Of a stretch of DNA of 64,000 nucleotides, positions 1,456 to 37,730 are shown piece by piece. The notes below the pieces were generated by a model. The model was not told where the DNA came from. It made no database searches and saw nothing but the letters and a program-made list of their open reading frames with translations. Source of the DNA: Botryllus schlosseri (taxonomy: Eukaryota). The stretch covers positions 38,194,001 to 38,258,000 of the forward strand of contig CM119371.1 in the NCBI GenBank assembly GCA_051294905.1, written 5' to 3'. The translations under genes were made by a program, and so were the position numbers. Numbering within the stretch: position 1 is the first letter of the stretch; every line of letters starts with the position of its first letter.

Positions 1456-2561
1456 TCAACGAACTTTTCTTTTGCATTTAGTTCCTCCTGGCTTGCTGCC
1501 ACTTCGTTTCGAAGGATTATGCGCCATCAATTGCCCATCAGTGGAGAGTGATAATGATTTAGGCAGCTTACAGGCTGTCGGGGCGGGAAAATTCATTAAC
1601 TGCTGAAATGAACGGTCTTGCTCGTCTTTTGGCATGTCGTCCCAATCCCAAGGAGATACCAAATACTTTTTACAATTCTCAGCAAGGGTAAAAGTACCAC
1701 GGCCTGTGATACTCTTTCGTACATCCAAGTATTGTGAAGTGATCGCTGATTTGAGTAGATTAATTAGATCTGGTAACTTTTTCTTTTTCCAATCTGTCAA
1801 TCGCTTGAGAACATGGTTCATGCTCTCGCAGTTGTTATTGGTGAACCATTTGTGCTCGGCGCCGATAAAGCTACGCATTTGCCAGACCTTTTTTCGCAAC
1901 AACGGTAGCAATCTATTTTGTAAGTATGTGACCAGCATTGGGCATATGCTATGGCACCTAGTGAGTAGGTCTTCTTCTCTTCGATTAAATTCAATTTCGT
2001 CCTTGCTATCCAACAGATTGAAGACTTGATTCACCAGACTTTTTCTCAAATGCTTGCTTGCACCGATGCCGTGCTGAAGTTTGTCGACCAAATTTGTCTT
2101 TAAATGATTGACACAGAGAACGTGCTTGCAGTTTTTGAACGAATTTTCTATTGCTGAGTGTAGTGCAATTTCGTCGTCTGTCCCCACGACAAGGTGATCG
2201 AAAGTACCTCCTATAACGGAGCTAAGATGACTGAAGAAGTCGTTAAATGTCCCTCTATCTGACCTATGGTGGAGATATATGGGACCAATGAAAATCGGAT
2301 TTTCCTGCGTTCTGGTGCTAATCATCTTCACGTTTTTGAAAACTGCTACAGTAGCGTACACATTGCCTAGGTTGTATGTCTTGTCAATTCCAAGTACAGT
2401 TTTTCCAGTACAACACATCTTTTTAAGATCTGTTATTTGATCATCGGTGTATACAATTATGCTGGATGCTTTTGCTGGAGAATGGATGACTCTTCTCACA
2501 AATTTTTCCGTGTGCATCATGTTTATGACATCCAAAAGTTCGTCTGCATAACAGTCTCGCG
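1456..2561 (-). pseudogene. C-terminal half of MULE transposase (DDE core), cut from its N-terminus by the Maverick insertion
   Basis: Motifs LGIDKTYN (D1), VGTDDEIAL (D2), HVLCVNH (CxxH), TNNNCESMN (E); frame is open up to the TSD and in phase with ORF 17493-19562. Confidence 0.9.
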
Positions 2562-3784
2562 AGTAGTTATATAGATCGGTCGTGACGGGCTATGGGGCTC
2601 TTATGGGCGGGGTGGCATGCTAACGAGAAACCGGGGGTGGCATGCTAACGTTTTCGTCTTATGGCGGGGGTGGCATGCTAACGTTTTCGTCTTATGGTGG
2701 GGGTGGCATGCTAACGTTTTCGTCTTATGGTGGGGGTGTCATGCTAACGTTTTCGTCTTATGGGTGCGGTCGCATGATAACGCGAAACTCGTGGTGACAT
2801 GCTAACGTTTTCGTCTTATGGGTGCAGTCGCATGATAACGCGAAACTCGTGGTGACATGCTAATGTTTTTGGTATACGTGCGGCGACATGCTAACGACGA
2901 TAAATGTGTCTGTCGTGTATTCTTACGGTATCTGTGGTGATTCACCATGTGTTCTTATGGGTGCGGTCGTGATTCGCACTTTCAGACATCTCTCGCGTGG
3001 TGTTGAATATGTACGAGTCACCAACAATAACCGCACAAACGGAAACGCGGTTTGTTGTGAGGATTAAGCAGTGCGACCTATATTTCGAATGACCTGCGTG
3101 CGGAATTGTTTCTCGTCCAGCCGCTACTATCGATGATTACACTATAGACCGGTCAGTGTGAAATAATTTGATCGTAAATTATAATATATGATGTAGTTTA
3201 GTCGTGTCAAATGACCGATCGTGTTCCTCGCTATTGATTGCCACCTGAATAATACTTTCGACTTATTCGCTGTTTCGCACCTATAGAATAGTCTGCTGTT
3301 CACAGTCGCAACAAGAATCACAAGTATACACATTTACACATTCGTTTATTACTCTGAAATCAAACTCTTCACAAAAGCACGTACAATCGTATCATTCACT
3401 TTTTTATCATCACCAAAATTATCCAAGTATTCCTCGGTTGAAAACCCTTGAGCTCTTTTTATCAAGAATGCGATAGCATGATCTCCACACACATCCGAAG
3501 TTTTACTCTGTAGCTGTTTCCCAGTCACAGAAAATTCATCCGACTCCAGGAATTGGAATATCCGAGGTTTTAGTGGTCCGAAACCTAGCGAATCATGAAA
3601 ATGAGTATCGTCATCTCTGTATATACACACCCAGTGAGACCCAGGCAAACTCGACTCGTCGTAATTAATGATGATAGCGAATTTTCCGCTAGTTGGTTTC
3701 TTTGGTAACTGGTCTACTGGATAAGTTCCTAGATATAGACTTCGTGTGTCAGGATGGTTATAGAGAATATCATTAATCTCAGAC
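2562..3784 (+). repeat. Left terminal inverted repeat of the Maverick (1223 bp)
   Basis: Reverse complement of 16275-17497; mirrored ORF coordinates all sum to 20059, so no indels; one mismatch noticed at 3775/16284. Confidence 0.95.
2608..2900 (+). repeat. Subterminal tandem repeats in the TIR (~30-bp GGGGTGGCATGCTAACGTTTTCGTCTTATG units and two ~59-bp units); mirrored at ~17160-17450
   Basis: Visible tandem units. Confidence 0.85.
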
Positions 3785-3900
3785 AGAGCCGGCGTAGACG
3801 GTGATTCCAATACCAACAACATGCTAACACTCCAAATAGGTGTGAAATAGTTTGCAAAGCCCCGCAATCGCTGACAACATAATGTCTCGGTCATAGCCAT
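3349..3900 (-). CDS. Second (TIR-borne) copy of the adenain-like cysteine protease with a foreign N-terminal extension
   Basis: Peptide identical to 16267-16710 from SEINDIL onward; GSHW, FHDS, QLQ and VCG motifs present; expression unknown. Confidence 0.7.
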   Translation of the reverse strand: MAMTETLCCQRLRGFANYFTPIWSVSMLLVLESPSTPALSEINDILYNHPDTRSLYLGTYPVDQLPKKPTSGKFAIIINYDESSLPGSHWVCIYRDDDTHFHDSLGFGPLKPRIFQFLESDEFSVTGKQLQSKTSDVCGDHAIAFLIKRAQGFSTEEYLDNFGDDKKVNDTIVRAFVKSLISE

Positions 3901-6900
3901 CTTTTGCGACTTGGCGCTACAGACATCGATCGCTCAAGCGTTGAAATTTTCGTAAGTAGTTTGTCACAGAACCGGATTTCACTGGTAAAATTTAATAAGT
4001 AACGAATAACAGAACCGTTGCAGCGGGTGATTGGAATACCGACAAATTATCACTTATTTCTGATCCAACCCTAATCCTTTGGGAAGTTGACGCTTATTCA
4101 AAAAGGTGTGAAATAATTGTAAAACCCTACGCCACTGACATGACAATGCATCAGACATAGCGATCTAGTTATAGCACGGGTCGGAATCCATTCGCGAGAT
4201 GTTCTATAGGTAAATTGAGATAATCCGAGACCGAATATTTTGACTTTGGCGTAGTGTGAATTGAAATAGGATTGACAAACATGACTACCATCTTTCCAAG
4301 TACCATTTCGATATTATACACACATTGATTTGAAACAAGTAATGGAACATTACAACTCTATTCACGATCCGACTTTCGGTTTGTCAAAGAGACATTTTAA
4401 CATCTTACCATACTCAAAAGAATTATTCATAATATTAACCGATGTTAAAAATATAGTTTTCACTTACTTGATTATATTACTACAACTTGTAAACTTTATT
4501 AATTCATCCTGGTGAACACGAATAGTGTTGCTTGCTTGTAATATTCACATATTGATCTGAATAATAACAACTCATGAGAACCTACAACTTTATTAACGAA
4601 CTAGTTATTTTTTACGAAACTGGAAATGCAAACTCTATTCGTCTCGACATCTCAACATCTTACAACACTCGAAAGAGTCAATTATGAAAACACTGCCAAG
4701 TAAATCCGTTGTACTGTAAAAGCGATTGATAGTTTTCACGACGCGACAACTACAAATCAATGCTTGCGACTTGCGACTAACATTGAGTGTACGAGATTTG
4801 AATATACGAAAAATAACCGAGAATTAATTTTTCGCAGATGAATCCGTATACTTTAATGTAAGCTATCATAAGACAAGTAAGTCCTTTACGATGACATTGA
4901 TTCACAATCCGATATTCTCATTATACACATTTTGAAATCCCATCATACCCATTTTCGAAATCAACTCTTAACGAAAATACGAATAGTCGTGGCAACTCGA
5001 TTATAATCAAAGTAATTCATGATTATACAGATTGTATTACACCCAACACCAAAACAAAAGGACTTTTTAGTTGATTAAATTCATATCATTCGTCTTCAAC
5101 TTGTGTCTTTTCTAGATTGCACGGACCAATTCGTTACGAGCGAGTTGCAACCAAAGTTAAGAAATCTTTGTGAAATCTTTGGATGAATATAGCTAACACA
5201 ATCACTTATCGCTGTTTCAAGTATTTCACAGGTGTGTCGCCTATCTAAAAGTATGCATGCGTTCGATTCCCGTACCGACTGTCGCGGTATTTATGAATTA
5301 AGGTAAAGATGAAGCACCAGTGTCGTTGCTGTCGGAATTCGTGACGGCGAATTGAAACATACACGCATTACACAGTGTGAAAATATCACTTTGGATATCG
5401 AAGGGTGATTAATACTTAATCCGTCCACACTCTCTATAGAACGCGCTAAATGTAAAATATCGTGAGGTTACACTCTAACACTTTGATCATTACAAAAGCA
5501 AATTGGTATATGTTTGCTAGAAGCATCCTGTTCAACTAGAAGTGTCTAGTACACAACACTCGTAATATCAAAGAAATACTTGCTACACTGTAATTCACTT
5601 AACGTGTTTTGCATTGTTGTTCATTTGTAGTATTGATTGTTTTTGAACCCCCAAATAATAATTCCCGACATGAAACCAAACCGCTGAAAGTCGTTACCAT
5701 CACAACGAAACAATTTGTACGATGTTTGTCAAATGCATCCTATAGTTAGGTGTACTAGAATTATTTGTGTAACACATACGCCGACAATGCAATCGAAAAT
5801 TTTTCCGTTGTCATTCGCTAAAGTAAATGTCATCACAATACTCATCAAGCTGTCATCTGTAAATCAAGATTACATCCAACTTGTAACTGTATCGTTTAAC
5901 TACCGGGTTGCATCAGTTTGCTATTTTTGTCATTTAGTGACTGCTAAACATACCAAACGATACACATTCACTTACGAAATACTGTGTTGGTCGTAATTTC
6001 CATCATCGTGATAATCGAAGTACATTTGTTTCGAATTCGTAACAGCCGACTATGACACGACGATCTTTGGAAAAGTTATGCTTGGAAGATTGGTTGTATA
6101 TCACGAAAAATAATTACCACTCATATTGATACTGTTATCCCTTGTTCGGTATTTTCAAACGAGTAAAATTTATTACTTGAGTTACTCCGCTTACTATATT
6201 CAAATGTAAACACAGCTGTCTTTCAACATCACAAAGACATCGATATAAAGTATACAATCAAACGCAACAAGTTTTACTTTTGTAGGACACTAATTATTAT
6301 TCCACGCATCTCATTTCATACTAAGTGTATATGAAAGATGTTCATGGTACACGAATATATTCGCTCATGCTACGAACATACGCAATGATTGGTGACGCTT
6401 TCACACTATTTCGATTTACTGTAACAAAAACAACAACAACAATTTTCACTCTCTTGACTTACGAAAACAACAGACGAACCTTCATTCAATATTTTGTTTT
6501 TGTCAACAAGTTACTTTTTCATGAGACCCCCACTACTCTTACAAAAGTACGAAAGATATTTACATCACACAAAGTAATCAACTTTACTCGATATTCTCAC
6601 ATTACGAAACTAAAGAATGGTTGGTTTGACTCTACAAACTGTTTCGTTACCTCAAGACCTTTATTGTCTGAATGGTTGTTCATGTGTCTTAAGAACCGAA
6701 TAGTTCAACACAGCACTAGTACCAACAGAAACATCAGAGTTGTTTGCACAAAAGTTTGTATGTGTACAGTATGCGAATACCATGTGTAAGTCCAGCACAA
6801 TTGCGGTATCCATCCGAGTTTAGTTAACACAAATTTATTACAACGGAGCCACGTAAACTTTCGTGAAAGAAAAGCATACTCACTTCCAGAGGGTTATTTC

Positions 6901-7639
6901 AACGCCATAGCAGTACTCCAACAACAAAGTACATATGTTTTCTAGTCACCGTCCTTACATATTTCACATAGATCAATCTACTTTGCTAACGAAAAGTGCT
7001 GAGTCACCACATGATTACCCTCACAACAAAACAGCTAGAAGATATTATCATACAAAAATATTTCTAACCCTTTGCGCACCAGTGACAAATCATACAACAA
7101 ACATTTTTTGTGAGGTGAATTGCTGTTCAGTGCCAAGTCTACCTGTTGAAACGTACATTAAAACAACACAGTCACAATTCAATTAAAACCACGAATCTAT
7201 TTTCATTTCGTTGCCTACAGAAAAATAAATTTTAATTTCCCAAAACATACTTGTAGTCAAGAAAAATTTTTATTAATCAAAATCATCGACTTCTGTTTAC
7301 GGTGTTAGTGTGCGCATGTCATACACGTGGGGACCGTATTAAAATGGACACGACACGACTGAATGTAAGGAGATAGAAGTCTATCGCATAGATTTACATG
7401 TGGTCTTCGCTATGGTTTCAAAAAACGAATCATCTCTTTTGCGTTGATCTAGACCGAGCAAGTTAGTTAATGGCCATGATTGTGTTTGTCATATGCGAAT
7501 GATAGGGTTACTGTCAAATCTACATACAACAACCTTCTGGTACTCAAAATAACAATTTCATTCTCTCCCTTCGTAGTCATATACCGCCAACTCGGCTTTT
7601 TTGTTCATCGACAGCGGCGTTTAACAAGACCAACTACAC

Positions 7640-8100
7640 TGAACCCACGACGTTTACCTATGTAAAATTACCACTTTCACTTGACAGTCCGTCGTTTACC
7701 TGGCTAAACATATCATTTTCCTTTGGAGATCTGATGTTTACCAAGAGTAAGAAACCTTTTTCACTTGGAAATCTATTTTTTCCCTGGGTAACAAACCTTT
7801 TTCACTTGGAAATATATTTTTTCTCTGGTTAACAAACCTTTTTTCACTTGGAAATATATTTTTTCTCTGGTTAACAAACCTTTTTCACTTGGAAATATAT
7901 TTTTTCTCTGGACAACAAACCTTTTCCCCCGGGTAACAAACCTTTTTCCCTGAGCAACAAGCCATTTTCACTTGGTGGTCCGTCGTTTACCTGAGTAAAA
8001 ATATCATTTTCCTTTGGGGATCTGGCGTTTACCCAGTGTAACAATACATTTTCTCTTGGTCATCTAGCTTTTCCTAGAGTAACAAAACCATTTTCATTTT
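7640..8100 (+). repeat. Internal tandem array of ~39-41-bp units (TTTCACTTGGAAATATATTTTTTCTCTGGTTAACAAACC-like)
   Basis: Near-identical units at ~7755-7925, more degenerate units on both sides. Confidence 0.8.
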
Positions 8101-8799
8101 GAAATCTGACAAACACGCCTGACAATTTGGTATTTGTTGTATTGACGATAGTTTGAAATAGATTACAACGAACAGTGACGGAAATATACACAGACTACCG
8201 GTTTCAGAGTATACCTGCATCAGTCGTATCACATCAATATCATCGGTTAACCACATACAATATGCTCTTGTACACCGAAATACATGTTTTGGAAAATTGG
8301 ACAATAGGCTTCGATAGTTCTGTGATGTCCGGGTTCGTGCTTTGGATTTTCCAGAGTCAAAATGTCTGAATAAAACACCTCCTTGACGATGGTTGGTATG
8401 TGGATAACGGTGTTCGGAAAACGGTTGGATTTATGTAACCCATCGCGATAACAACTCCAGGTCGAGTTTTCCTCCCGCACGTTTACTATATTGTGTCTTT
8501 ATTGGTCACTGTATGTCTCGACATTCAGTTTGAAATCGGAAACCCTGATAAAGTACGTAACCGGATCCGGATATCAACTGTGAATCGATAAACCAATGAA
8601 CAATATTCAAAGTAAACATGTTACACCCTGTGTTTCCACGACAAAATACCATCCAGACATACATCGCGCTTGTTTGCCCACACCAGTATACGCGCAAATG
8701 GAGGTGTGTGACATTGCATGCAATGTGTTGGTATACAAACATCGATCCACAGACATTATCATAACCGGTAATTTTGATGTAGATCGAATGTCACTCGAG

Positions 8800-9464
8800 A
8801 CAACTTTGCGAAAAATGTCTCAGACTGTCGACGCGCTGGGGATCGCGAGCCTAACATGGATATAATTGAGCTAACGCAAAAACTCGCTGCGAATTCTTGT
8901 TATGATTGCGAGTTAATGAATCCGCGTAAACTCAAACAAACCACGTTCTGTGATAAAAGTGAATTGGACGCAAATGTGGAGGATCGCTTTTTCATCAAGT
9001 GTGAACAATTAAACACAGATCTATTTGAAATAACGAAGCATCCTCAAAAGATCGAGCAAGATAACTGCATTCAAGTATCGTTCTGGTTGTATAATAATGT
9101 CAAATTACGGATGTTGTCGTTTTTTTATGATTGTTTATGCAAATATTTTCGAGCCGACTGCTTCATGCTACTTTCGATGGATATCAACTCGTTTTTCATC
9201 GCGCATTCAGCACCGCTCGATGATATTCTCATTTCCGAGAAAAGGAACGAATTTTACTGTGATTACGAGAATTGGTTTCCGCGTTATTTTTGTGATGAGC
9301 ATCGAAACGAATTCTTGACTGATCCGATTTCTTTTGACCGCTCGAGACAATGCTGTAAAGATGCGTATGCTCATTATCTTCATCAACCTGGTTTGATGGA
9401 AGTGAGATACGACGCCGATGCATCTTTCCACGCTCTCAATCGCTTTCACAGTGACCCAAGATAA
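8800..9464 (+). pseudogene. Truncated, degenerate protein-primed DNA polymerase B fragment
   Basis: In-frame FAKNVSDCRRAGD...KLAANSCYD (motif B KxxxNSxYG altered), KLRMLSFFYD, MDINS (motif C DTDS altered), PGLM; in-frame stop at 8775; no exonuclease or motif A region recognised. Confidence 0.85.
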
Positions 9465-10090
9465 AATAAATCACGGCGTTGAATGTTATTGTGGTGTACT
9501 TGTATATATTTTGTGTGACTTTAATTTATTTGTATATACTGTATGTTTGATGTGATTTATTTGTATTGTGTGTTCATGTATCATTTGTTTTCCAGATGGA
9601 TAACACTATTACCTATCTAAAGTCTGTCATGTCGTTAGATTTTAATGGTTTACATGTAGAGATGATTACCTTGGAGCGGGAATTACCACAGTTCACGATT
9701 CTTGGTTCTACCAAACAACCCCCAATGTCGATGATACCCGATTGATGAAAAGCAGACCACCAAAACTTGTGATCGTGGTAAGGTCTATAGTTTGGTATAG
9801 TAACACTGTTAGATTTTAAAGCGCTATGAACGTATTATGAATCCTCTTATGTGATTTATTATTTTACAGATTGGGATCAGCTGCTTGACGACCTGAAGCA
9901 TTCGTAACGCTACAACTTCCACTGACGATGAGAAACAGATGAAGATTTCATAACCCGGCGAAAATTGCTAAATCGAACTTTACTGGGTTTATATATTCCG
10001 CTAGAACAAGATGACTACAACAGTGGATATTCCCAACCTTGTTGATATATAAACACATGCACTTTATCGAGTTTCAATAAACAACAAACG

Positions 10091-10699
10091 ATGGAATTGA
10101 TCCACCCATTCGCGTGTATTGTGAGTGGTCCTTCAAGAAGTGGGAAGACTACTTTCGTTGCCAAGCTGATTAGACATGCGACATCAATGATTAAACCTAG
10201 TGTGTCCAGGGTCGTATATTGTTACAATAATTATCAGGAGGTTTTCAAGACGATGCATAACGTAGAATTCCACGCTGGTCTAGATATTTTAGAAGAGTTG
10301 AAGGTTTGCTCTGAAGACACCTTGATTATAGTGGATGATTTCATGACTGAGACAGCGAAAATTGCAGACTACTTTACAAGATTTTCTCATCATTCGGCAA
10401 AGTCAATTTGCTATATCACACAGAACCTGTATCACAAGGGTAAAGGAGCACGTGACTTGAGTCTTTCAAGCTCGTATATGGTGATTTTCAAGAATCCGCG
10501 CGACCAACAGCAGATCAGTTTTCTTGGTCGACAAATGTACCCAAACTCTAGATTTTTAACAGAGGCTTATCGTGACGCTGCTAGACGACCTCATAGTTAT
10601 TTATTCCTCGATCTCACGCAAGAAGCACCTGAAAATCGACGCGTTATGACCAATATATTCCCTGGTGAAACCATGGTGGTTTATAGCCCGATGGTATAA
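10091..10699 (+). CDS. Maverick packaging ATPase (A32/FtsK-HerA-like)
   Basis: Walker A GPSRSGKT, Walker B IIVDD, ITQN, FKNPRD, PHSYLFLDL. Confidence 0.95.
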   Translation: MELIHPFACIVSGPSRSGKTTFVAKLIRHATSMIKPSVSRVVYCYNNYQEVFKTMHNVEFHAGLDILEELKVCSEDTLIIVDDFMTETAKIADYFTRFSHHSAKSICYITQNLYHKGKGARDLSLSSSYMVIFKNPRDQQQISFLGRQMYPNSRFLTEAYRDAARRPHSYLFLDLTQEAPENRRVMTNIFPGETMVVYSPMV

Positions 10700-10703
10700 A
10701 TAG
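10694..10703 (+). promoter_or_regulatory. TATA-like box GTATAAATAG overlapping the ATPase stop, 30 nt before the next ATG
   Basis: Identical decamer overlaps the integrase stop at 12469-12478. Confidence 0.5.
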
Positions 10704-10732
10704 CCAAGCACAGAGACGACTTTAAACTCAAA

Positions 10733-11080
10733 ATGACCAAGGTACCAGCTCGGACACGGCGGCATATTCCCACACTAGAGTTCCTACATAAAAGTAAACC
10801 CGAGATACGCAAGCAAATTATATCGGGGGCCAGCAAAGAATTGATCGAGTGTATATGCGATTGTACAAAGAACATTTTAAACGGTAACATCCCTCTTTCA
10901 AAGTATAAAAGAAAGCGACTATCAGCTCATAAATGTAGTTTACGTCGACTTGTCAGGAAAGACATCCCTATTCGACATAAAAAACGTATGGTCAACCAGA
11001 ATGGGGGTATGTTTATGACTCTATTATCAAGCATCCTACCCGTCGTCACTGGTTTACTCGGTAATCTTTTCAAAAAATGA
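10733..11080 (+). CDS. PZ-like protein, N-terminal part (basic, ending in QxGG plus a hydrophobic/amphipathic helix)
   Basis: ICDCTKNILNGNIPLS...NQNGGMFMTLLSSILPVV pattern; position between ATPase and integrase. Confidence 0.8.
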   Translation: MTKVPARTRRHIPTLEFLHKSKPEIRKQIISGASKELIECICDCTKNILNGNIPLSKYKRKRLSAHKCSLRRLVRKDIPIRHKKRMVNQNGGMFMTLLSSILPVVTGLLGNLFKK

Positions 11081-11472
11081 CTTCTTTTAAAAAAATCTTC
11101 ATAAATCCGAGCCCGATCAACGGAGCTGACGTTCAGAAATTGAATTTGGATATCGACAAATGTATGAGCGACATATTACAGATGAACATACCCCAAGAAC
11201 GAAAATTAGCCTTATATAACGACGCACTAAATCGTTATCAAACAAAACACGACACACTGAATCAACCGATGAAAATCGATATATCAGAACAAAGGAATCT
11301 ATTTTCGGCTAGTGAGTTGGACGCACTGCGACGCCTGATCAAGGGTGAACCATCAAGGATTCCTATACCATCACCGAGTAGCCAACGAAGCAAAGTAAAG
11401 ACTCAGCATGCCAAGACGAAAAGCGGTCGTACACCCAAGACCCCGAGACGATACGGATGGGAGCCATACTAA
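11077..11472 (+). CDS. PZ-like protein, second part
   Basis: LDIDKCMSDIL...ERKLALYNDALNRY pattern; ATGA overlap with the upstream ORF. Confidence 0.7.
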   Translation: MTSFKKIFINPSPINGADVQKLNLDIDKCMSDILQMNIPQERKLALYNDALNRYQTKHDTLNQPMKIDISEQRNLFSASELDALRRLIKGEPSRIPIPSPSSQRSKVKTQHAKTKSGRTPKTPRRYGWEPY

Positions 11473-12478
11473 GTATTTCACGCCAGGGCTACCCGGTAGT
11501 TACCGCGGTGCATACGTATTCTCTAGAGGGCGGAATAGAACCAAAGTCAAGGAGTTTCTTTCGGGCAAGGACGCGTACACAAAACATTTTCCATATCGAA
11601 AGAAATTTAAGAGACCTAGAGTGATTACGTCCGGTCTTGGTGTTCAGTATCAAACCGATCTCATGCATATGCAAAACCTTTCAAAAGAAAACGATAATTT
11701 TAAATATGTGTTGGTGACGATCGATTGTTTCAGCCGATTTTTATATCTGTATCCGCTCAAGAACAAAACCTCGCAAGGTATTATTCGCGGATTCAAGGAA
11801 ATATTTAAGGAACGTATACCTCATGTTATTCAAAGTGATCAAGGTTCTGAGTTTACTAACCGTGCGTTTCAGACTTTCTTGAAAGAGAACAATGTGCGAC
11901 ATTTTCATACAAATAGTGAACTGAAAGCATCGATATGCGAGCGTGTTATTCGTACTGTGAAGCAAGTGTTATACCGTTATTTCACGCATAATAAGACTTT
12001 GAATTATGTCAGTGTCCTGTCTGAGATATGCCGGGGGTATAACACTACTTTTCACGTTGCTATAGGGTGTCCTCCAGCAGATGTTGATTATTCAAATCAA
12101 GAACAAATTTTCCACAGGTTATACGGTGACATGACCCCTAAAAAACCCAAACTAACTATCGGCACACCGGTCAGGATTTCGAAATCACGTGGTAATTTTG
12201 TAAAAAGTGCCTTGGCGAGTTGGACCGAAGAAATCTTTTTCGTATCTCAATGTCGTAAAGGTGACCCTCCTACTTATCAATTGAAAGACTACCATGGTGA
12301 AGTTATAGACGGTCGCTTTCAGGGTGAAGAGTTACAACCAATAACGAAAAATAATAATATTTACAATATCGAAAAAATCCTGTCTACTCGCAGGAAAGGA
12401 AAGAAAACGCAATATCTTGTAAAATGGTTGGGTTATCCGTCTACATTTAATTCTTGGGTCTCGGATTTGTATAAATAG
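11408..12478 (+). CDS. Retroviral-like DDE integrase (c-integrase) with C-terminal chromodomain
   Basis: YQTDL (D), IQSDQGSEF (D), ICERVIRT (E); YNIEKIL...YLVKWLGYPSTFNSWV chromodomain. Confidence 0.97.
   Translation: MPRRKAVVHPRPRDDTDGSHTKYFTPGLPGSYRGAYVFSRGRNRTKVKEFLSGKDAYTKHFPYRKKFKRPRVITSGLGVQYQTDLMHMQNLSKENDNFKYVLVTIDCFSRFLYLYPLKNKTSQGIIRGFKEIFKERIPHVIQSDQGSEFTNRAFQTFLKENNVRHFHTNSELKASICERVIRTVKQVLYRYFTHNKTLNYVSVLSEICRGYNTTFHVAIGCPPADVDYSNQEQIFHRLYGDMTPKKPKLTIGTPVRISKSRGNFVKSALASWTEEIFFVSQCRKGDPPTYQLKDYHGEVIDGRFQGEELQPITKNNNIYNIEKILSTRRKGKKTQYLVKWLGYPSTFNSWVSDLYK
12469..12478 (+). promoter_or_regulatory. TATA-like box GTATAAATAG overlapping the integrase stop
   Basis: Same decamer as 10694-10703; ATGs at 12488 and 12506 follow. 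Confidence 0.5.
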
Positions 12479-12487
12479 ACACCGAAA

Positions 12488-12721
12488 ATGTTGTTCAACC
12501 AAACTATGGATTCTGATTCCGTCTCATCTCGCATGGGCCAAGTCTCGAACAGTCTGAAAAACCAGATTGTGTTTATTGTACAGATTTGTATGTTAGTGTG
12601 TGTAATCGTGTTTTCCTTATATCAAATTTCTGTCGGGGTGGATCGTGAGATATATTTAACGCTACTGTCTTCTTCACTTGGGTATTTATTACCGAATCCA
12701 TCACCTCATCGTATATGTTGA
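12488..12721 (+). CDS. Small two-helix membrane protein of the Maverick
   Basis: Two hydrophobic segments ending LLSSSLGYLLPNP; fills the gap between integrase and minor capsid. Confidence 0.7.
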   Translation: MLFNQTMDSDSVSSRMGQVSNSLKNQIVFIVQICMLVCVIVFSLYQISVGVDREIYLTLLSSSLGYLLPNPSPHRIC

Positions 12722-12734
12722 AAGAAACAATAAA

Positions 12735-13565
12735 ATGTTGTTGACTCTACCTTCGAATGCGAGTTTGGATAAATTTCCGAATACTAGCACAGATTTTCAA
12801 ACGGAACTTTACAAAGAATTAGAAATGAATCGCCATGAGCTAGGATTATGTGAGCTGACCTTCCCCAATGATTTTCAACCGCGAATTGAAGTGACAGCGA
12901 AAAGTATCGGTTTTGGATTTGTCGATGCGAATGGATACACCGATCGGTATTATATTCCCGAAGGCTCGTATTACAGCATCGGTGAAATGTTAGAATCGTA
13001 CGAGAAATATTACATGGGGGACATTTTCATTTTACAAGGATTCGGAGACTTTAGAATCACATTCAGAAGATTAGTCACGAGTAAAAAAAGATACAAGCGG
13101 GGTGTACCCATAAATACCGATACCACAGACTCTAGCGTCAAACACATACCCCGTACCACGCATGATTCACCCGAGCCTTACGGACTGATACCACTTGGTT
13201 CTGTGTTGGACACAATAACATTTAGACGCGTTGTATCTCGTCGCCGCGGAGTGGTAGAATTTATATTTACACCCGCGATAAAGTTGGAACGGATTGATAA
13301 GGTTTATGTGTATTGTGATCTGATACAACCAAGACCACACGGTAACAAGCTGCAACAACTTTTACGGGTGGTTACTGTAACCGCTAAACCGAATGAAAAC
13401 CAAATCAACATATTCCCAAAACCATACTTCTTTGCTTTAGCGAAAAACAATTTTAGAACAATACGAATTTATCTACGTGATGCGGCTGGCAACCCTATTA
13501 AATTTCGAAAAGCACCAGTGACAGTGACCCTACGCTTCCGTCGTAGAGCTGTTGATTCAATATGA
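12735..13565 (+). CDS. Minor capsid (penton-like) protein 1
   Basis: LTLPSNAS..FPNT start; VYVYCDLIQP..GNKLQQLLRVV...PYFF...IRIYLRD..G.PI.F C-terminus; ATG at 12735. Confidence 0.88.
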   Translation: MLLTLPSNASLDKFPNTSTDFQTELYKELEMNRHELGLCELTFPNDFQPRIEVTAKSIGFGFVDANGYTDRYYIPEGSYYSIGEMLESYEKYYMGDIFILQGFGDFRITFRRLVTSKKRYKRGVPINTDTTDSSVKHIPRTTHDSPEPYGLIPLGSVLDTITFRRVVSRRRGVVEFIFTPAIKLERIDKVYVYCDLIQPRPHGNKLQQLLRVVTVTAKPNENQINIFPKPYFFALAKNNFRTIRIYLRDAAGNPIKFRKAPVTVTLRFRRRAVDSI

Positions 13566-14233
13566 GTTACATCACGTTATCTGGCACCCAAGGTGAATTC
13601 TCGGTGGTGTTACCGAATGAAATTATTTGTAATGAACTCGCATTGATGGATATGAGTTTTGTCAGTGAATCTCTTGATCGAATTATAATCAATCACGATC
13701 AAGCACTCTGGGAGCTACATAATGAGAAAGATCGAATAGTAGATGCGTACCTAACACCACTTGGGAATTATGCAAACAACCTCGAGTTGACGCGAAGAAT
13801 ATTAGCTGAAAGTTTCAAACACTGTTTCACCGAAAGAATCAACGATGAACTTTTCCGAATTCGTTACTCGAAACGTATCACACTCCACCCCACGGATATA
13901 TTCACGAATTATTTCAGTGTAGTTGATCAAGTGTCGACGCCAGTATGTAATGTCACGTCAATCAAACCTAAACCAACTCAATCCCACCTCAGATATCTTT
14001 TTGTGTATATCAATGTACTACGACATCATCCGGTGGGTGATTACATGAGTCAATTGCTTCGTGTGATCCAAGTAAATAACGAGACGTGTATGAGACAAGA
14101 AGTTGTATATGAAAAACCTTTTTATTTCCCAGTATCGATTAACCACATCCGCGATATAAAAATCACCATCCGGGATCAATACGGTCAGTTAGTGCATGAT
14201 ATAGAGACCACATTGACACTCCACGCACGATGA
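13562..14233 (+). CDS. Minor capsid (penton-like) protein 2
   Basis: ELALMD; YLFVYINV..HPVGDYMSQLLRVI...PFYFPV...IKITIRDQYG. Confidence 0.8.
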   Translation: MSYITLSGTQGEFSVVLPNEIICNELALMDMSFVSESLDRIIINHDQALWELHNEKDRIVDAYLTPLGNYANNLELTRRILAESFKHCFTERINDELFRIRYSKRITLHPTDIFTNYFSVVDQVSTPVCNVTSIKPKPTQSHLRYLFVYINVLRHHPVGDYMSQLLRVIQVNNETCMRQEVVYEKPFYFPVSINHIRDIKITIRDQYGQLVHDIETTLTLHAR

Positions 14234-14625
14234 AAATAGTGACGTTAACCACCTCTATGCTTGGTGTTGATTTTGAACACAGACTACTCACCATCAACAA
14301 CATCCCGACAAGATATTGTGAATTAGCCCTCATGGAGATCGATTTCACTTTAACCGAACCGGTGATTGGTCAATATTTGTTTGTGTATTGCGATATTATT
14401 CACCCTCACTTACTTGGAGATGTGTTAGCGCGTTTATTACGAGTTATACCGCTGACACCTGGTGATGTCACGCATAATTGGGTAGCGACAAATCCGTATT
14501 ATTTCCCTGTTTCAAAAGATGTTGTAGATTCTGTATGTCTTTACCTCAGGGATGAGTTTGGGGAACCTATAAATATAATAAGTCGTTCATTGCAAGCTAC
14601 ATTTAACATTAGGAAGCGATTATGA
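14230..14625 (+). CDS. Minor capsid (penton-like) protein 3, minimal core without central insert
   Basis: ELALME; YLFVYCDII.P.LLGDVLARLLRVI...PYYFPV...LYLRDEFGEPI. Confidence 0.8.
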   Translation: MKIVTLTTSMLGVDFEHRLLTINNIPTRYCELALMEIDFTLTEPVIGQYLFVYCDIIHPHLLGDVLARLLRVIPLTPGDVTHNWVATNPYYFPVSKDVVDSVCLYLRDEFGEPINIISRSLQATFNIRKRL

Positions 14626-14993
14626 AAGTTGTTTTCACGTGTGATCATCATTCTGTCCATCGTCATTATAACCAGACAGGTGATGGTTATGGATATTTTA
14701 GCGGTGGAGTTCAAGCCGGTTCCGGTATTGGGAGTTTGTTTAAATCACTCGGTCGTTTAGTGACACCTATTGCGAAATACGCCGGCGGTCAATTGTTACG
14801 GACTGGAGGTGAAATAGCGAGAGATCTATTACGGGGTAACTCGATCAAGTCTAGTGTTGTCAAGAGAAGTAAACAAGCTGGTGGTCGAGTGATTGATAAA
14901 ATTTTAACCCCAAAAGCTATAAAAAGGAAAAAAACAAAGTCAAAGAACACTTCATCCAAACGTCGTCGTAAACAACAGGATATATTCGACTAA
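14622..14993 (+). CDS. PW-like basic putative core protein
   Basis: YNQTGDG..F.G..QAGSGIGSLFKSLGR; K/R-rich tail ending DIFD; lies just before the major capsid gene. Confidence 0.85.
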   Translation: MKVVFTCDHHSVHRHYNQTGDGYGYFSGGVQAGSGIGSLFKSLGRLVTPIAKYAGGQLLRTGGEIARDLLRGNSIKSSVVKRSKQAGGRVIDKILTPKAIKRKKTKSKNTSSKRRRKQQDIFD

Positions 14994-14998
14994 GAACT

Positions 14999-16270
14999 AT
15001 GTTGATGCACGCAGGTTCCCGAGAATGTCATAACTCGGGATTAAACATATTTAGTATACCCCACACACAAACCAGTATTGAGGAATCGCAATATGTCGTC
15101 GTCAAACCCCATAGTTTAGGTAATGTCATGGAAGTACAATTACCAAGGACGGATCGATATATGGATCTACAAAACACGTTCTTGAGATTACGTTTGAAGC
15201 TCACTAAACGCGATGGAACTGATTTAGCAAACGATACACAAGTGGGCCTGGTCAATAACATGTTGGATTCTCTTTTCAAACAAATCGATGTAACTATTTC
15301 AAATGAGGTTATCACAAATTCGGATAATTGTCATGCGTACAAAGCTTATATCTCTCGGTTGTTGAATGATACTCACGAGGCCTCGGAGAGTTTTGTGCAA
15401 GGACAAGGTTTTTATAAAGATGTCGCTGGATCTATGGATGTTCTTGGTGCAGCGAATACTGGATATGTTAAACGAAAAGACCTTACAAAAAACAGCACTC
15501 CGTTAGAGTTGATCGGAAAAATTCGAATGGGTCTTTTTGAACAGTCTAGATGTATGTTGGATAATGTCGACATGAAATTAAAATTTACACGTAACGAAGA
15601 TAATTTCTGTCTGCTCGGTGATGCGGAAGATGTACAAATTGTTTTACTCGAAATGGAGGTGTATGTCAAACAGATGAAGATCGCTGAAAGTGTAAGCTTG
15701 GCACACAAGTCTGTATTACAGAAGAATACTGCAAAGTATCCCTGGATACGCTTACAAATGTCGACTCATACATTCGCGGCGGGCTTGTCGAAAATTGATA
15801 GAGAGTTAGTTAGCGGCACCATGCCAAAGAAGATCGTAATTGGTTTAGTTGAGACCACGACATTTAACGGTGTTCGGACCAAAAACCCATTCAACTTTAA
15901 ACACTTTGATGTTCAAAATCTTTCGTTAAGTGTGGATGGGCGTCAAATTAACGGACGCGAATTTCATTTCGATTTTGATAAACATGGCGGACTCGAAGGA
16001 TATATGGCACTATTCTCTCAGACAGGTCGCTGGGAATCCGAGGCACCTTTAAATATTTCACGCAAAGATTATGTCAATGGATACACTCTTTTTGTGTTTG
16101 ATTTGACGCCCGATAATAGTTTGGGATGTTATCAACTTCATAAGACAGGAACTGTGCATCTGGTTTTGACTACATCGAAGCCGTTACCAACCTCCGTAAC
16201 CTTGTTATGTTTGAAGGAGTTTCAACATCTTCTACAACTGAATCAAAAAAGACAAGTCGTCGAAATATGA
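14999..16270 (+). CDS. Major capsid protein (PY, double jelly-roll)
   Basis: LNIFSIPHTQTSIE, NNMLDSLFKQIDV, AYKAYI, PKKIVIGLV, NPFNFKHF, GYTLFVFDLTPD. Confidence 0.95.
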   Translation: MLMHAGSRECHNSGLNIFSIPHTQTSIEESQYVVVKPHSLGNVMEVQLPRTDRYMDLQNTFLRLRLKLTKRDGTDLANDTQVGLVNNMLDSLFKQIDVTISNEVITNSDNCHAYKAYISRLLNDTHEASESFVQGQGFYKDVAGSMDVLGAANTGYVKRKDLTKNSTPLELIGKIRMGLFEQSRCMLDNVDMKLKFTRNEDNFCLLGDAEDVQIVLLEMEVYVKQMKIAESVSLAHKSVLQKNTAKYPWIRLQMSTHTFAAGLSKIDRELVSGTMPKKIVIGLVETTTFNGVRTKNPFNFKHFDVQNLSLSVDGRQINGREFHFDFDKHGGLEGYMALFSQTGRWESEAPLNISRKDYVNGYTLFVFDLTPDNSLGCYQLHKTGTVHLVLTTSKPLPTSVTLLCLKEFQHLLQLNQKRQVVEI

Positions 16271-16710
16271 ATACGTCTGAGATCAATGATATTCTCTATA
16301 ACCATCCTGACACACGAAGTCTATATCTAGGAACTTATCCAGTAGACCAGTTACCAAAGAAACCAACTAGCGGAAAATTCGCTATCATCATTAATTACGA
16401 CGAGTCGAGTTTGCCTGGGTCTCACTGGGTGTGTATATACAGAGATGACGATACTCATTTTCATGATTCGCTAGGTTTCGGACCACTAAAACCTCGGATA
16501 TTCCAATTCCTGGAGTCGGATGAATTTTCTGTGACTGGGAAACAGCTACAGAGTAAAACTTCGGATGTGTGTGGAGATCATGCTATCGCATTCTTGATAA
16601 AAAGAGCTCAAGGGTTTTCAACCGAGGAATACTTGGATAATTTTGGTGATGATAAAAAAGTGAATGATACGATTGTACGTGCTTTTGTGAAGAGTTTGAT
16701 TTCAGAGTAA
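16267..16710 (+). CDS. Adenain-like cysteine (maturation) protease, 147 aa
   Basis: ATG overlaps the capsid stop (ATGA); MNTSEI, YPVDQLP, GSHW (His), HDSLG (Asp), QLQ...VCG (Gln, Cys). Confidence 0.95.
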   Translation: MNTSEINDILYNHPDTRSLYLGTYPVDQLPKKPTSGKFAIIINYDESSLPGSHWVCIYRDDDTHFHDSLGFGPLKPRIFQFLESDEFSVTGKQLQSKTSDVCGDHAIAFLIKRAQGFSTEEYLDNFGDDKKVNDTIVRAFVKSLISE

Positions 16711-17497
16711 TAAACGAATGTGTAAATGTGTATACTTGTGATTCTTGTTGCGACTGTGAACAGCAGACTATTCTATAGGTGCGAAACAGCGAATAAGTCG
16801 AAAGTATTATTCAGGTGGCAATCAATAGCGAGGAACACGATCGGTCATTTGACACGACTAAACTACATCATATATTATAATTTACGATCAAATTATTTCA
16901 CACTGACCGGTCTATAGTGTAATCATCGATAGTAGCGGCTGGACGAGAAACAATTCCGCACGCAGGTCATTCGAAATATAGGTCGCACTGCTTAATCCTC
17001 ACAACAAACCGCGTTTCCGTTTGTGCGGTTATTGTTGGTGACTCGTACATATTCAACACCACGCGAGAGATGTCTGAAAGTGCGAATCACGACCGCACCC
17101 ATAAGAACACATGGTGAATCACCACAGATACCGTAAGAATACACGACAGACACATTTATCGTCGTTAGCATGTCGCCGCACGTATACCAAAAACATTAGC
17201 ATGTCACCACGAGTTTCGCGTTATCATGCGACTGCACCCATAAGACGAAAACGTTAGCATGTCACCACGAGTTTCGCGTTATCATGCGACCGCACCCATA
17301 AGACGAAAACGTTAGCATGACACCCCCACCATAAGACGAAAACGTTAGCATGCCACCCCCACCATAAGACGAAAACGTTAGCATGCCACCCCCGCCATAA
17401 GACGAAAACGTTAGCATGCCACCCCCGGTTTCTCGTTAGCATGCCACCCCGCCCATAAGAGCCCCATAGCCCGTCACGACCGATCTATATAACTACT
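16275..17497 (-). repeat. Right terminal inverted repeat of the Maverick (1223 bp)
   Basis: Reverse complement of 2562-3784. Confidence 0.95.
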
Positions 17498-19373
17498 CTC
17501 GCGACAGGCTACTGTGCCCTTCTTTGCTTACTTTTTCCCGGTGCTTAGTGTGGTGGATCTGACTTATATTCCGAGGCATTTGCGAAATACTTTCGGAATC
17601 ATTTTGAAGATCAACGTAAACTCGCTTTCCTGTCCCGTATGTAACCTTTTCCTTTATCTTCTCAATAGTGCTGGGCGGAGTGCGGATGTAATTTTGAAAG
17701 TTCACAGAGCTGTTTCCGTGTGGACTGCAGTCCCCAGATATACCCTTGTACTCCACGATACACACATTACATGGATCCGATGGTCCGCTTTCAATCCAGC
17801 TTATACGTTTTTCGTAACCAGGGTTGTTCTTTGATTTAGCGTAGTATCGCCCAACCATGAGTACGTCACCTGGAGAAGGCTGCGGTGATAACGGCAAGTA
17901 CTCCTTCATTTTTAGGGTACAAATAGCACCCCTGTGGCACCGCGGCTTGTATACATACCTGAGTCGGTCCTCGGTCTTCAAGTAATATGAATATGTTTGC
18001 TTGGTTTTCGTCCAAGCTCCCATGTCATCATAAAATATGCGATGAATTTTAGCAGCCTTTCGAAGTATGTTTGTTTTAAAATCAACGATAATGTAACAAT
18101 TGTCTTTCCGTCCTGGAGGAATCTTCGAAAGGGCGTTTTTACAATCCATAATTTTTTTCACCACATCCTCAATTTTCAAAAACTCGTTAAAGGGCAGCTT
18201 CGTTTCATTGTTCAGCTCATTGTTCAGGTTAGGTAGAACTGATTTGGTTTTGTCTCCGTCAGCAACTTCTCCTATTTCAGAATTCATCTGTTCCCCATTC
18301 ATTTGGTCAATAGGCGAATCTTCACTTAGGATACTGCTTTCTAGGAGCGAATGCTGTTGTTTATTAGCATTCACATCGCCAAGTTCGCTCTTATGAAACG
18401 TTTTGAAGTCGTCTTGTTCGCGTATATTCGGCTTGTCAATGTCGTCTTTTTCGCGTACATTCGGCTTATCAATGTCGCTTTTCTGATCCTCCGATTTCAG
18501 TTTTGATTCGCATAAACTATTTGGATCACTTGAAATCAGATCGGTGATTTTGATGATTGGCACGAAGTGATTCGGTCGAAATGGATTGCTTGTCGTGGGC
18601 ACGGTAGTTTGTGTCCACATCAGAGTCGCAACTGGTATGGCAAATTTCGACACACCCCGGCCGCAACATTTGCGCGTGAACGGTTCTGTCAGGTATTCAT
18701 TTGCCAATGTTGACGGATAATATGAGCGAATCGCGGAGCCAAGGGCGGCACTCAATGCGTAAATATGCATCATCTCGGACCAATGCCCCGGAATGCTTGC
18801 TTTTTGTACCAGACTGGCATAAGGCGATGACACAATTCTAACGTCAGCTATAAGGTCAACAAATCCCTCTGCGTCTTCGTCATAATATTTCGGATGCTCA
18901 ATAATTTCGAGCGCGGTCAGAAGCCTCAAGCGCAAGTGGTGTTTCGCAGTGCCGTATAAGGCAAGCGACATTGCGCGGTAAAAACAATTCCCATCGCCAT
19001 CAACTCGCAAGGCCGTGTGATCCGTGGTGATGATATAATGAAACTGCTTCAAAATCATAAGTGAAACCTCATCCACTACTGCTGCCTCATTTGGCATGCT
19101 CCGATCAGGCTCGAGTACTTTATACAAACGAAGAATCCGTTTTATAGCTGTACAATGTTCCGGATTTGCTCTAATATGTTGCAATGCCCACTCATAATTG
19201 AATTCACCTTCGAAGAATATGCAACAACGACATATGAAAATCTGGATTTTCCGCTCATTGAAGCTACCGATCTTCGCACAAGAACAGTGAGAGTATCTGT
19301 TGCATTCGTAGCATTCGACGTACTCGTCGGACTTTAAACAATCAAGTCCGCAAACAGTACAAGGATGAGACAT
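17498..19373 (-). pseudogene. N-terminal half of MULE transposase: PHD finger, OTU-like (vertnin-like) cysteine protease and linker; ends at the Maverick junction
   Basis: CTVC...C..C..YSHC.C...CRCC PHD pattern; VDGDGNCFYRAMS and PNHFVPI OTU motifs; first ATG 19373 (frame open from 19562); the TAG stop comes from the Maverick end. Confidence 0.85.
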
Positions 19374-21179: not shown

Positions 21180-21625
21180 CTTCATTGCTTCATTGGCTTC
21201 ATTTTTACATTAGCTGGTTTCATTAGCTTTTCGTTAGCTTACTTTTCATTAGCTTACTTTTTCATTAGCTTAATTAGCTTTTCATTAGCTTTTCATTAGC
21301 TTACTTAGCTTTTCATTAGCTTTTCATTAGCTTAATTAGCTTCATTAGCTTTTCATTAGCTTACTTTTCATTAGCTTACTTTTTCATTAGCTTAATTAGC
21401 TTTTCATTAGCTTTTCATTAGCTTACTTAGCTTTTCATTAGCTTAATTAGCTTCATTAGCTTTTCATTAGCTTACTTTTCATTAGCTTACTTTTTCATTA
21501 GCTTAATTAGCTTTTCATTAGCTTTTCATTAGCTTACTTAGCTTTTCATTAGCTTAATTAGCCTTTCATTAGCTTAATTAGCTTTTCCTTAGCTTAATTA
21601 GCTGCATTAGCTTTTCATTAGCTTG
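21180..21625 (-). repeat. Right arm of foldback-type MULE (TTCATTAGCTT arrays)
   Basis: Reverse complement of the 1-575 array. Confidence 0.9.

Positions 21626-36401: not shown

Positions 36402-37730
<1,329 letters not shown>

Follow-up and report, generated by a model that had tools for sequence, protein, structure and literature searches.

A recent, non-autonomous Maverick of Botryllus schlosseri with the maturation protease gene inside its terminal inverted repeats

The window, the whole 64,000-nucleotide stretch of Botryllus schlosseri DNA that was analysed (assembly GCA_051294905.1, contig CM119371.1, positions 38,194,001 to 38,258,000, forward strand), contains a Maverick/Polinton inserted into the transposase frame of a Mutator-type element:

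2562..17497: whole Maverick/Polinton, 14,936 bp, with (AGT)2//(ACT)2 ends, a motif given in the available text of PMC8097293
2556..2561, plus strand: left copy of the target-site duplication, 6 bp, equal to 17498-17503
17498..17503, plus strand: right copy of the target-site duplication, a perfect match to 2556-2561
17498..19373, minus strand: 5' part of the host Mutator (MULE) transposase frame, with an OTU domain (Pfam) and 625 codons without a stop, continuing at 2555
1456..2555, minus strand: 3' part of the host MULE transposase frame, with a terminal stop only (Pfam MULE, E 6.1e-05)

When its two parts are joined, the MULE transposase frame has 991 codons in frame, broken only by the Maverick. 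This unbroken host frame, together with the perfect target duplication, indicates that the insertion is clean and recent. The inserted sequence has the structure of a Maverick/Polinton: terminal inverted repeats (TIRs) with the end motif, a 6-bp target duplication, a retroviral-type integrase, an adenain-type protease and a packaging ATPase, the last from weak matches. It is a real and recent Maverick, a non-autonomous derivative with a protease-containing repeat. Between the repeats the following features were recognised:

3785..8875: gene-poor left interior, common to a high-copy family, with a median depth 10-20x that of the core genes
3782-3960: duplicated and diverged unit at the start of the left interior, resembling 4008-4212 (alignment score 115.5, against a shuffle maximum of 90.5 in 300 shuffles)
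8856..9464, plus strand: 202-aa open frame, polymerase-fragment-like, with its own ATG and overlapping an 89-aa frame
10091..10699, plus strand: packaging-type ATPase, from weak matches (AAA_14, E 4.4e-05; Pox_A32, E 0.008)
11408..12478, plus strand: retroviral-type integrase with chromodomain (rve, E 2.6e-16; Chromo, E 1.4e-08)
14999..16270, plus strand: putative major capsid protein, 423 aa, so called for its size and location (no Pfam match), its stop overlapping the protease ATG
16267..16710, plus strand: native maturation protease (adenain type), 147 aa, its ATG overlapping the upstream stop

An intact protein-primed DNA polymerase is absent, stop-to-stop frames in 3900-10100 reaching at most 228 codons, so the Maverick would need a helper polymerase. 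Here the 202-aa frame gave language-model feature matches of 0.95-0.96 to a 'DNA-directed DNA polymerase (Fragment)' cluster and to a cluster with PF03175 on 17% of its members; it had no Pfam match, and a longer homologue was found in 0 of 154 candidates. It is probably a truncated remnant of a protein-primed DNA polymerase. For the 89-aa frame at 8596, all leads scored below 0.9.

The candidate major and minor jelly-roll capsid frames have fitting size and position and no Pfam match. ATGA overlaps are found at five plus-strand gene boundaries (11077, 13562, 14230, 14622 and 16267), and those in 11077-16270 suggest that the genes may be coupled by stop-restart on one message. Three successive frames of 276, 223 and 131 aa (12735-14625) look alike in their C-terminal pattern on visual inspection, and may have arisen by triplication of a minor-capsid gene. 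In the left interior, degenerate T-rich tandem repeats of about 42/84 bp lie at 7649-8108. Protease-like sequence before the second of the two duplicated units was considered and rejected, as its score was below the shuffle mean.

The native protease was assigned from a profile of 100 sequences, which matches ASFV S273R (E 3.8e-14) and adenovirus protease (E 4.9e-10); its relative P0001 is 95% identical and of equal length (147 aa). Searched as single sequences, the two protease copies in the window matched no Pfam or PDB family, and Peptidase_C5, present in 2 of 5 aligned members, is absent from both. The second copy results from the extent of the TIRs, which are arranged as follows:

2562..3784: left TIR, 1223 bp, with one mismatch to 16275-17497
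16275..17497: right TIR, 1223 bp, an inverted match to 2562-3784
2562..3310: outer TIR part, non-coding, 749 bp, with subterminal CATGCTAAC-motif repeats
3311..3784, minus strand: segment apparently added to the outer part, 474 bp, comprising protease codons 4-147, the stop, a poly(A) signal (3345-3350) and a 3' tail
3775..3784: junction zone, with the sole arm mismatch (3775) and a 2-base overlap (3783-3784) with a protease-less left end
3349..3900, minus strand: fusion ORF, 183 aa, 39 foreign residues followed by protease residues 4-147

Alignment of the two arms confirmed that, as originally predicted, the inverted identity runs from the termini through nearly the whole protease CDS and ends about three codons short of its ATG (2562-3784 vs 16275-17497, 1223 bp each). 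With a single mismatch over 1223 bp, the arms can have diverged by no more than about 0.4%. That mismatch lies at 3775/16284, where it changes the third base of protease codon 6 synonymously, fewer than 10 bases from the inner end of the TIR; the chance of such a position is 0.8%, which was counted in favour of a copying of one end over the other, and suggests that the junction zone is special. Beyond it the identity ends abruptly, 2 of the next 10 bases and 26 of the next 100 being matched (background). On the right, the TIR starts at the third base of protease codon 3, 8 bases from the A of the ATG. The arms together make up 2446 of the 14,936 bp and the core genes are present; the Maverick is not a core-gene-less palindromic satellite.

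The left copy is fused in frame to unrelated sequence with ATGs (at 3900, 3894 and 3822), giving the 183-aa ORF with intact His/Asp/Gln/Cys that had been described before this analysis. From residue 40 on, the ORF is identical to residues 4-147 of the right protease, and the catalytic residues His89, Asp103, Gln131 and Cys138 are in place. In a structural model the pLDDT block means are 41-69 over residues 1-40 and mostly above 90 thereafter, and the 39-residue extension is predicted to be disordered; the top five fold matches of the model are all adenovirus protease. What the fusion lacks is conserved: in 148 homologues (156 fetched, minus 5 over 260 aa and 3 cluster duplicates) residue 1 is Met in 129, residue 2 Asn/Asp in 117 and residue 3 Thr/Ser in 110. 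Of 144 homologues, 116 start at the same position as the native protease and 3 have at least 19 residues before position 4. On this conservation, the loss of residues 1-3 may carry a functional cost.

The length of the repeat is less unusual than had been supposed. The prediction of a TIR expanded to 1223 bp was right about the length, which, though long, falls within the published ranges for Mavericks, 46-1447 bp in vertebrates (PMC8097293) and 100-1500 bp elsewhere in the literature. Its premise that protease-coding TIRs were unknown was mistaken. Butterfly polintons (Pieris, Euchloe) are reported with TIRs of about 2 kb that contain hexon and adenain, each present twice per insertion, and related butterfly elements are without polB yet apparently still mobile (bioRxiv 10.1101/2025.02.07.637071). 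Adenain inside the TIR, in two copies, and the existence of polB-less elements are thus common to the butterflies and the window. In the butterfly TIRs, however, hexon is enclosed as well and both genes are described as present twice, whereas the 1223-bp TIR here starts at 16275, after the putative capsid stop (16270) and inside protease codon 3, and its second protease is without codons 1-3 and fused to 39 foreign codons. The two are the same kind of arrangement, not the same family. The available text of the butterfly report proposes no mechanism for gene-coding TIRs. It was the only report found in a literature search for polinton adenain in two copies with TIRs, with most subscription papers outside the search, and the available text of PMC8502044, PMC11296320, PMC9356565, PMC11131425 and 10.64898/2026.07.28.741278 holds no further case of protease in polinton TIRs. 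Even as a single copy, the Maverick therefore extends the published arrangement to a second animal group after butterflies, the first in the literature found.

Vertebrate Mavericks are described as 12.7-24.6 kb in size, with (AGT)2//(ACT)2 ends and a 6-bp target duplication (PMC8097293). The end motif, the target duplication and, with the putative capsid gene, the integrase-capsid-protease module are shared with the Maverick in the window, and its size and TIR length are in range. Unlike them, it has no intact polymerase, all its recognised genes are on one strand, and the protease is terminal and inside the repeat.

Relatives were surveyed in four public sequencing runs (X1, X5, X6 and X24; 4 of the 24 listed) mapped on 2380-16274. 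X1 may be the assembly's own source, X5 is an independent sample from 2020, X6 carries another species label and X24 is RNA. Sister copies are known here from read contigs and summed depth, not end to end, and summed depth does not measure copy number. Across the left interior (3772-8875) the median depth is 10.5x (X1), 20x (X5) and 9.8x (X6) that of the core genes, with 10 of 11 bins above 3x core depth in each of these runs. The outer repeat is as deep (high depth in bin 2844-3307), and in all three DNA-type runs the protease bin is much shallower than the bins on either side of it (46k vs 181k and 118k in X1, 1.0k vs 57.5k and 10.7k in X5, 44 vs 126 and 98 in X6). This suggests that the abundant relatives are mostly without the protease at that place. 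Depth was also considered as proof of two proteases per element and set aside, as it is not robust in that use.

At 3242, 3513 and 3555 both arms carry alleles that account for a minority of the depth in X1 (12-28%) and that X5 and X6 show seldom or not at all. The other letter at these positions accounts for 88, 72 and 78% of depth in X1, 90, 100 and 100% in X5 and 100% in X6; at 3555 this majority letter encodes Glu80 of relative P0001. The shared minor alleles indicate that each arm resembles its partner more than the rest of the family, and that the left copy derives from the lineage's own right end.

The runs also gave several observations on the interior. Depth over 8856-9803 falls to 0.15-0.35 of the core value in X1 and X5 and almost to zero in X6, suggesting that the polymerase-like remnant marks a minority sub-lineage. 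The segment 4700-5606 is a low-depth island within the high-copy left interior, and X5 and X6 contigs match it without any difference. In X6, under its other organism label, the gene block 10205-16274 is found in long contigs at about 98-99% identity, which may reflect a close relative, a mislabel or a recent transfer. The sole RNA-rich bin in X24 is 9804-10090, with a depth of about 20 on both strands; the reads continue into unlike sequence and would thus come from a related repeat elsewhere.

A protease-less left end was seen in one X5 contig (depth 80), in which 3310 is joined to 3783 via 20 other letters; the short side of this join is 23 letters with 88% likeness, a class flagged as unreliable. 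At face value the contig suggests that the old TIR was 749 bp, that 474 bp were gained and about 20 bases replaced, and that 2 bases were common at the switch. On this contig and depth, the outer part (2562-3310) is probably the older TIR. A 37-letter piece in an X1 contig was tried as a decayed protease remnant and rejected (198 of 1000 shuffles score as well); native sequence as the alternative source was no better (294/1000 and 548/1000 shuffles).

From these results it is reasonably likely that the right end, outer repeat and protease together, was copied onto the left end of a free linear form, most likely in a fold-back (panhandle). On a free linear molecule, DNA synthesis would copy the outer repeat at the right end together with the protease gene next to it, and would then switch at the 2-base overlap to the left interior, a short way inward of the old repeat. 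The TIR would thereby grow from about 749 to 1223 bp with only about 20 bases replaced. A fold-back form, with the two inner junctions side by side, would be the most likely setting, and this adjacency would explain why the switch landed near the old repeat boundary. The product would keep intact termini, so that a polymerase supplied in trans could replicate it before its clean and recent integration, and the left protease frame would be a passive by-product without the conserved start. Repair of ends through a panhandle has also reportedly been studied experimentally in adenovirus. A replication model with annealed TIRs has been given for polintons in a figure legend, and is a precedent for the fold-back setting.

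The original prediction that one end was copied over the other is supported by the three shared minor alleles, which place the origin of the left copy in the lineage's own right end. The clean termini, target duplication and host-transposon frame imply, moreover, that the left copy arose before insertion. The more specific proposal, a footprint of a panhandle or strand-displacement intermediate, would be compatible with a junction that appears to land about 20 bases inside the old boundary and with the 2-base overlap, both from one contig. A deletion of genes at the left end, also proposed, is unsupported, since by one contig only about 20 bases were replaced and the loss of the polymerase, whose remnant is at 8856-9464, lies 5 kb away.

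Similar end products are known in other linear genomes. In monkeypox virus, one end has been replaced by an inverted copy of the other, with duplicated genes and a fusion frame at the breakpoint (bioRxiv 10.1101/2022.09.16.508251). The inverted end copy and the fusion frame are as in the Maverick, but poxviruses are hairpin-ended cytoplasmic viruses and their events span many kilobases with gene loss, whereas here 474 bp were gained and apparently about 20 lost, followed by integration. The ITRs of linear Hydra mitochondrial genomes hold a non-functional partial cox1, the last gene, and are kept alike, which is attributed to concerted evolution (PMC2518934). These too are inverted terminal repeats with a partial copy of the last gene, but of an organelle genome and not a mobile element.

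The timing of the event is less clear, and three hints of a junction older than the present copy were counted against a single recent copying. It is possible, though doubtful, that a left end with protease goes back further within a sub-lineage and is simply inherited here, with the arms kept alike by repeated fold-back correction and the protease-less form either ancestral or a later deletion. In one X5 contig (depth 44), a stretch of 24 letters or more that runs up to 3779, within the protease copy, continues at 4091. One X6 contig ends exactly 30 letters past 16274, as for a graph branch at 16275 with the assumed contig word size of 31 letters; a variant at 16305 would, however, end it at the same place. 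The protease bin is at 2.39x (X1), 2.34x (X5) and 5.76x (X6) core depth, but removing 41 bases of possible overlap with an abundant repeat lowers the excess to 1.71 in X1 and makes it negative in X5, and point depths in X6 are 9.4 at 3513 and 15.8 at 3555, against 6.5-10 for core genes. Each of the hints is thus one contig or summed depth. Precedents exist in the butterfly family, which keeps two protease copies in three species (bioRxiv 10.1101/2025.02.07.637071), and in the Hydra repeats, described as evolving in concert (PMC2518934). If the junction is older, the shared private alleles would reflect later homogenisation of the arms against each other rather than one recent copying. An inherited end of this kind overlaps with the preferred copying of the right end in mechanism and differs from it in timing.

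An exchange between two molecules, in which a damaged left end recombined with a sibling's right end without any panhandle, would leave the same sequence if the molecules were near-identical, and this was counted against the copying explanation. The same end product, with a breakpoint inside genes, is described for monkeypox virus (bioRxiv 10.1101/2022.09.16.508251), and the Maverick is mosaic elsewhere too, with depth steps at about 4700, 8875 and 9800. Such an exchange is nevertheless unlikely: a junction about 20 bases from the old repeat boundary would be left unexplained, and the shared minor alleles demand a near-identical sibling as donor.

It had further been proposed that the left copy yields a second protease isoform, uncoupled from the capsid gene. 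The open 183-aa frame stands, its catalytic residues are intact and its core fold is confidently predicted, and a poly(A) signal was copied along with it. The ATG at 3900 has a purine at -3 and a G at +4, a context found at 214 of 4715 control junctions, and 49 open codons occur at 248 of the 4715. On the other hand, an in-frame ATG without a stop occurs at 1204 of the 4715 control junctions in the same region; by these counts the extension frame is somewhat above average and not remarkable. Conserved residues 1-3 are gone, many contigs (97 in X1, 28 in X5) depart from the extension sequence past 3819, and any transcript reading in from upstream would be ended by the minus-strand poly(A) signals at 4495 and 4589. 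As for a minus-strand transcript across the junction, none was clear in the one RNA run, X24, where neither strand reached a depth of 0.6 in the two junction bins; about 6% of this run was read, 543 reads mapped and 96% of them continue into unlike sequence, and its core genes are equally silent, so that it has little power for or against expression. A transcribed and selected second protease with an N-terminal extension is therefore quite improbable.

Lastly, it is highly improbable that a chimeric read or repeat mis-join placed the right end on the left during assembly. In favour of such an artefact, the arms are nearly identical, exact sequences of the window's proteins were found for 0 of 6 in the searched protein collection, and none of the 24 pieces listed, out of these and 102,260 more, spans 3784/3785 with at least 31 letters each side. 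Against it, the flanks differ and continue correctly on both sides, the target duplication is perfect and the host transposon in frame, the arms differ at one base, the minor alleles are present in X1 reads and two contigs from other samples hint at the same junction.

The arrangement itself is already published; the Maverick adds a better-resolved junction and a testable link to hairpin satellites. Replication of Mavericks via a fold-back intermediate is a model, so far without direct observation, and a TIR that has grown by 474 bp, landing near the old boundary and carrying private alleles, is the footprint that this model predicts and one that can be counted across genome copies. If the junction was inherited by many copies, each with private alleles common to its two protease arms, the family would be a natural, countable record of fold-back correction in Maverick replication. 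Tentatively, the Maverick may also be a gene-carrying link to palindromic Maverick satellites, the left 6.3 kb being a satellite-type arm that ends at the polymerase remnant and the protease-bearing repeat the result of a smaller step in the same copy-back that generates whole-element hairpins. A second protease would matter more, but has little in its support. Relatives outside the runs were also sought: protease-based locus searches gave none in 22 viral-contig stretches or 196 metagenome contigs, and DNA-pattern searches gave 0 matches in viral contigs and 21 in metagenomes, none of the 21 resembling the Maverick.

Some features of the surrounding DNA may be added. The Mutator-like element around the Maverick (1-21624) has inverted repeat-rich ends (1-485 vs 21205-21624, up to 98-100% alike), its left end may precede the window start, and the N-terminus of its 991-codon OTU-MULE frame is Cys-rich. 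DnaJ/TPR-like intron-split exons, recognised by eye near the Maverick, fit an animal host. On the minus strand at 36402-37730 an uninterrupted frame of 442 codons was recognised by eye as 26S proteasome ATPase-like; it is intronless amid intron-split neighbours and is possibly a retrocopy. A further inverted-repeat pair (126 nt, 88%, 764 nt apart) lies in a GC-skewed region at 50270-51285.
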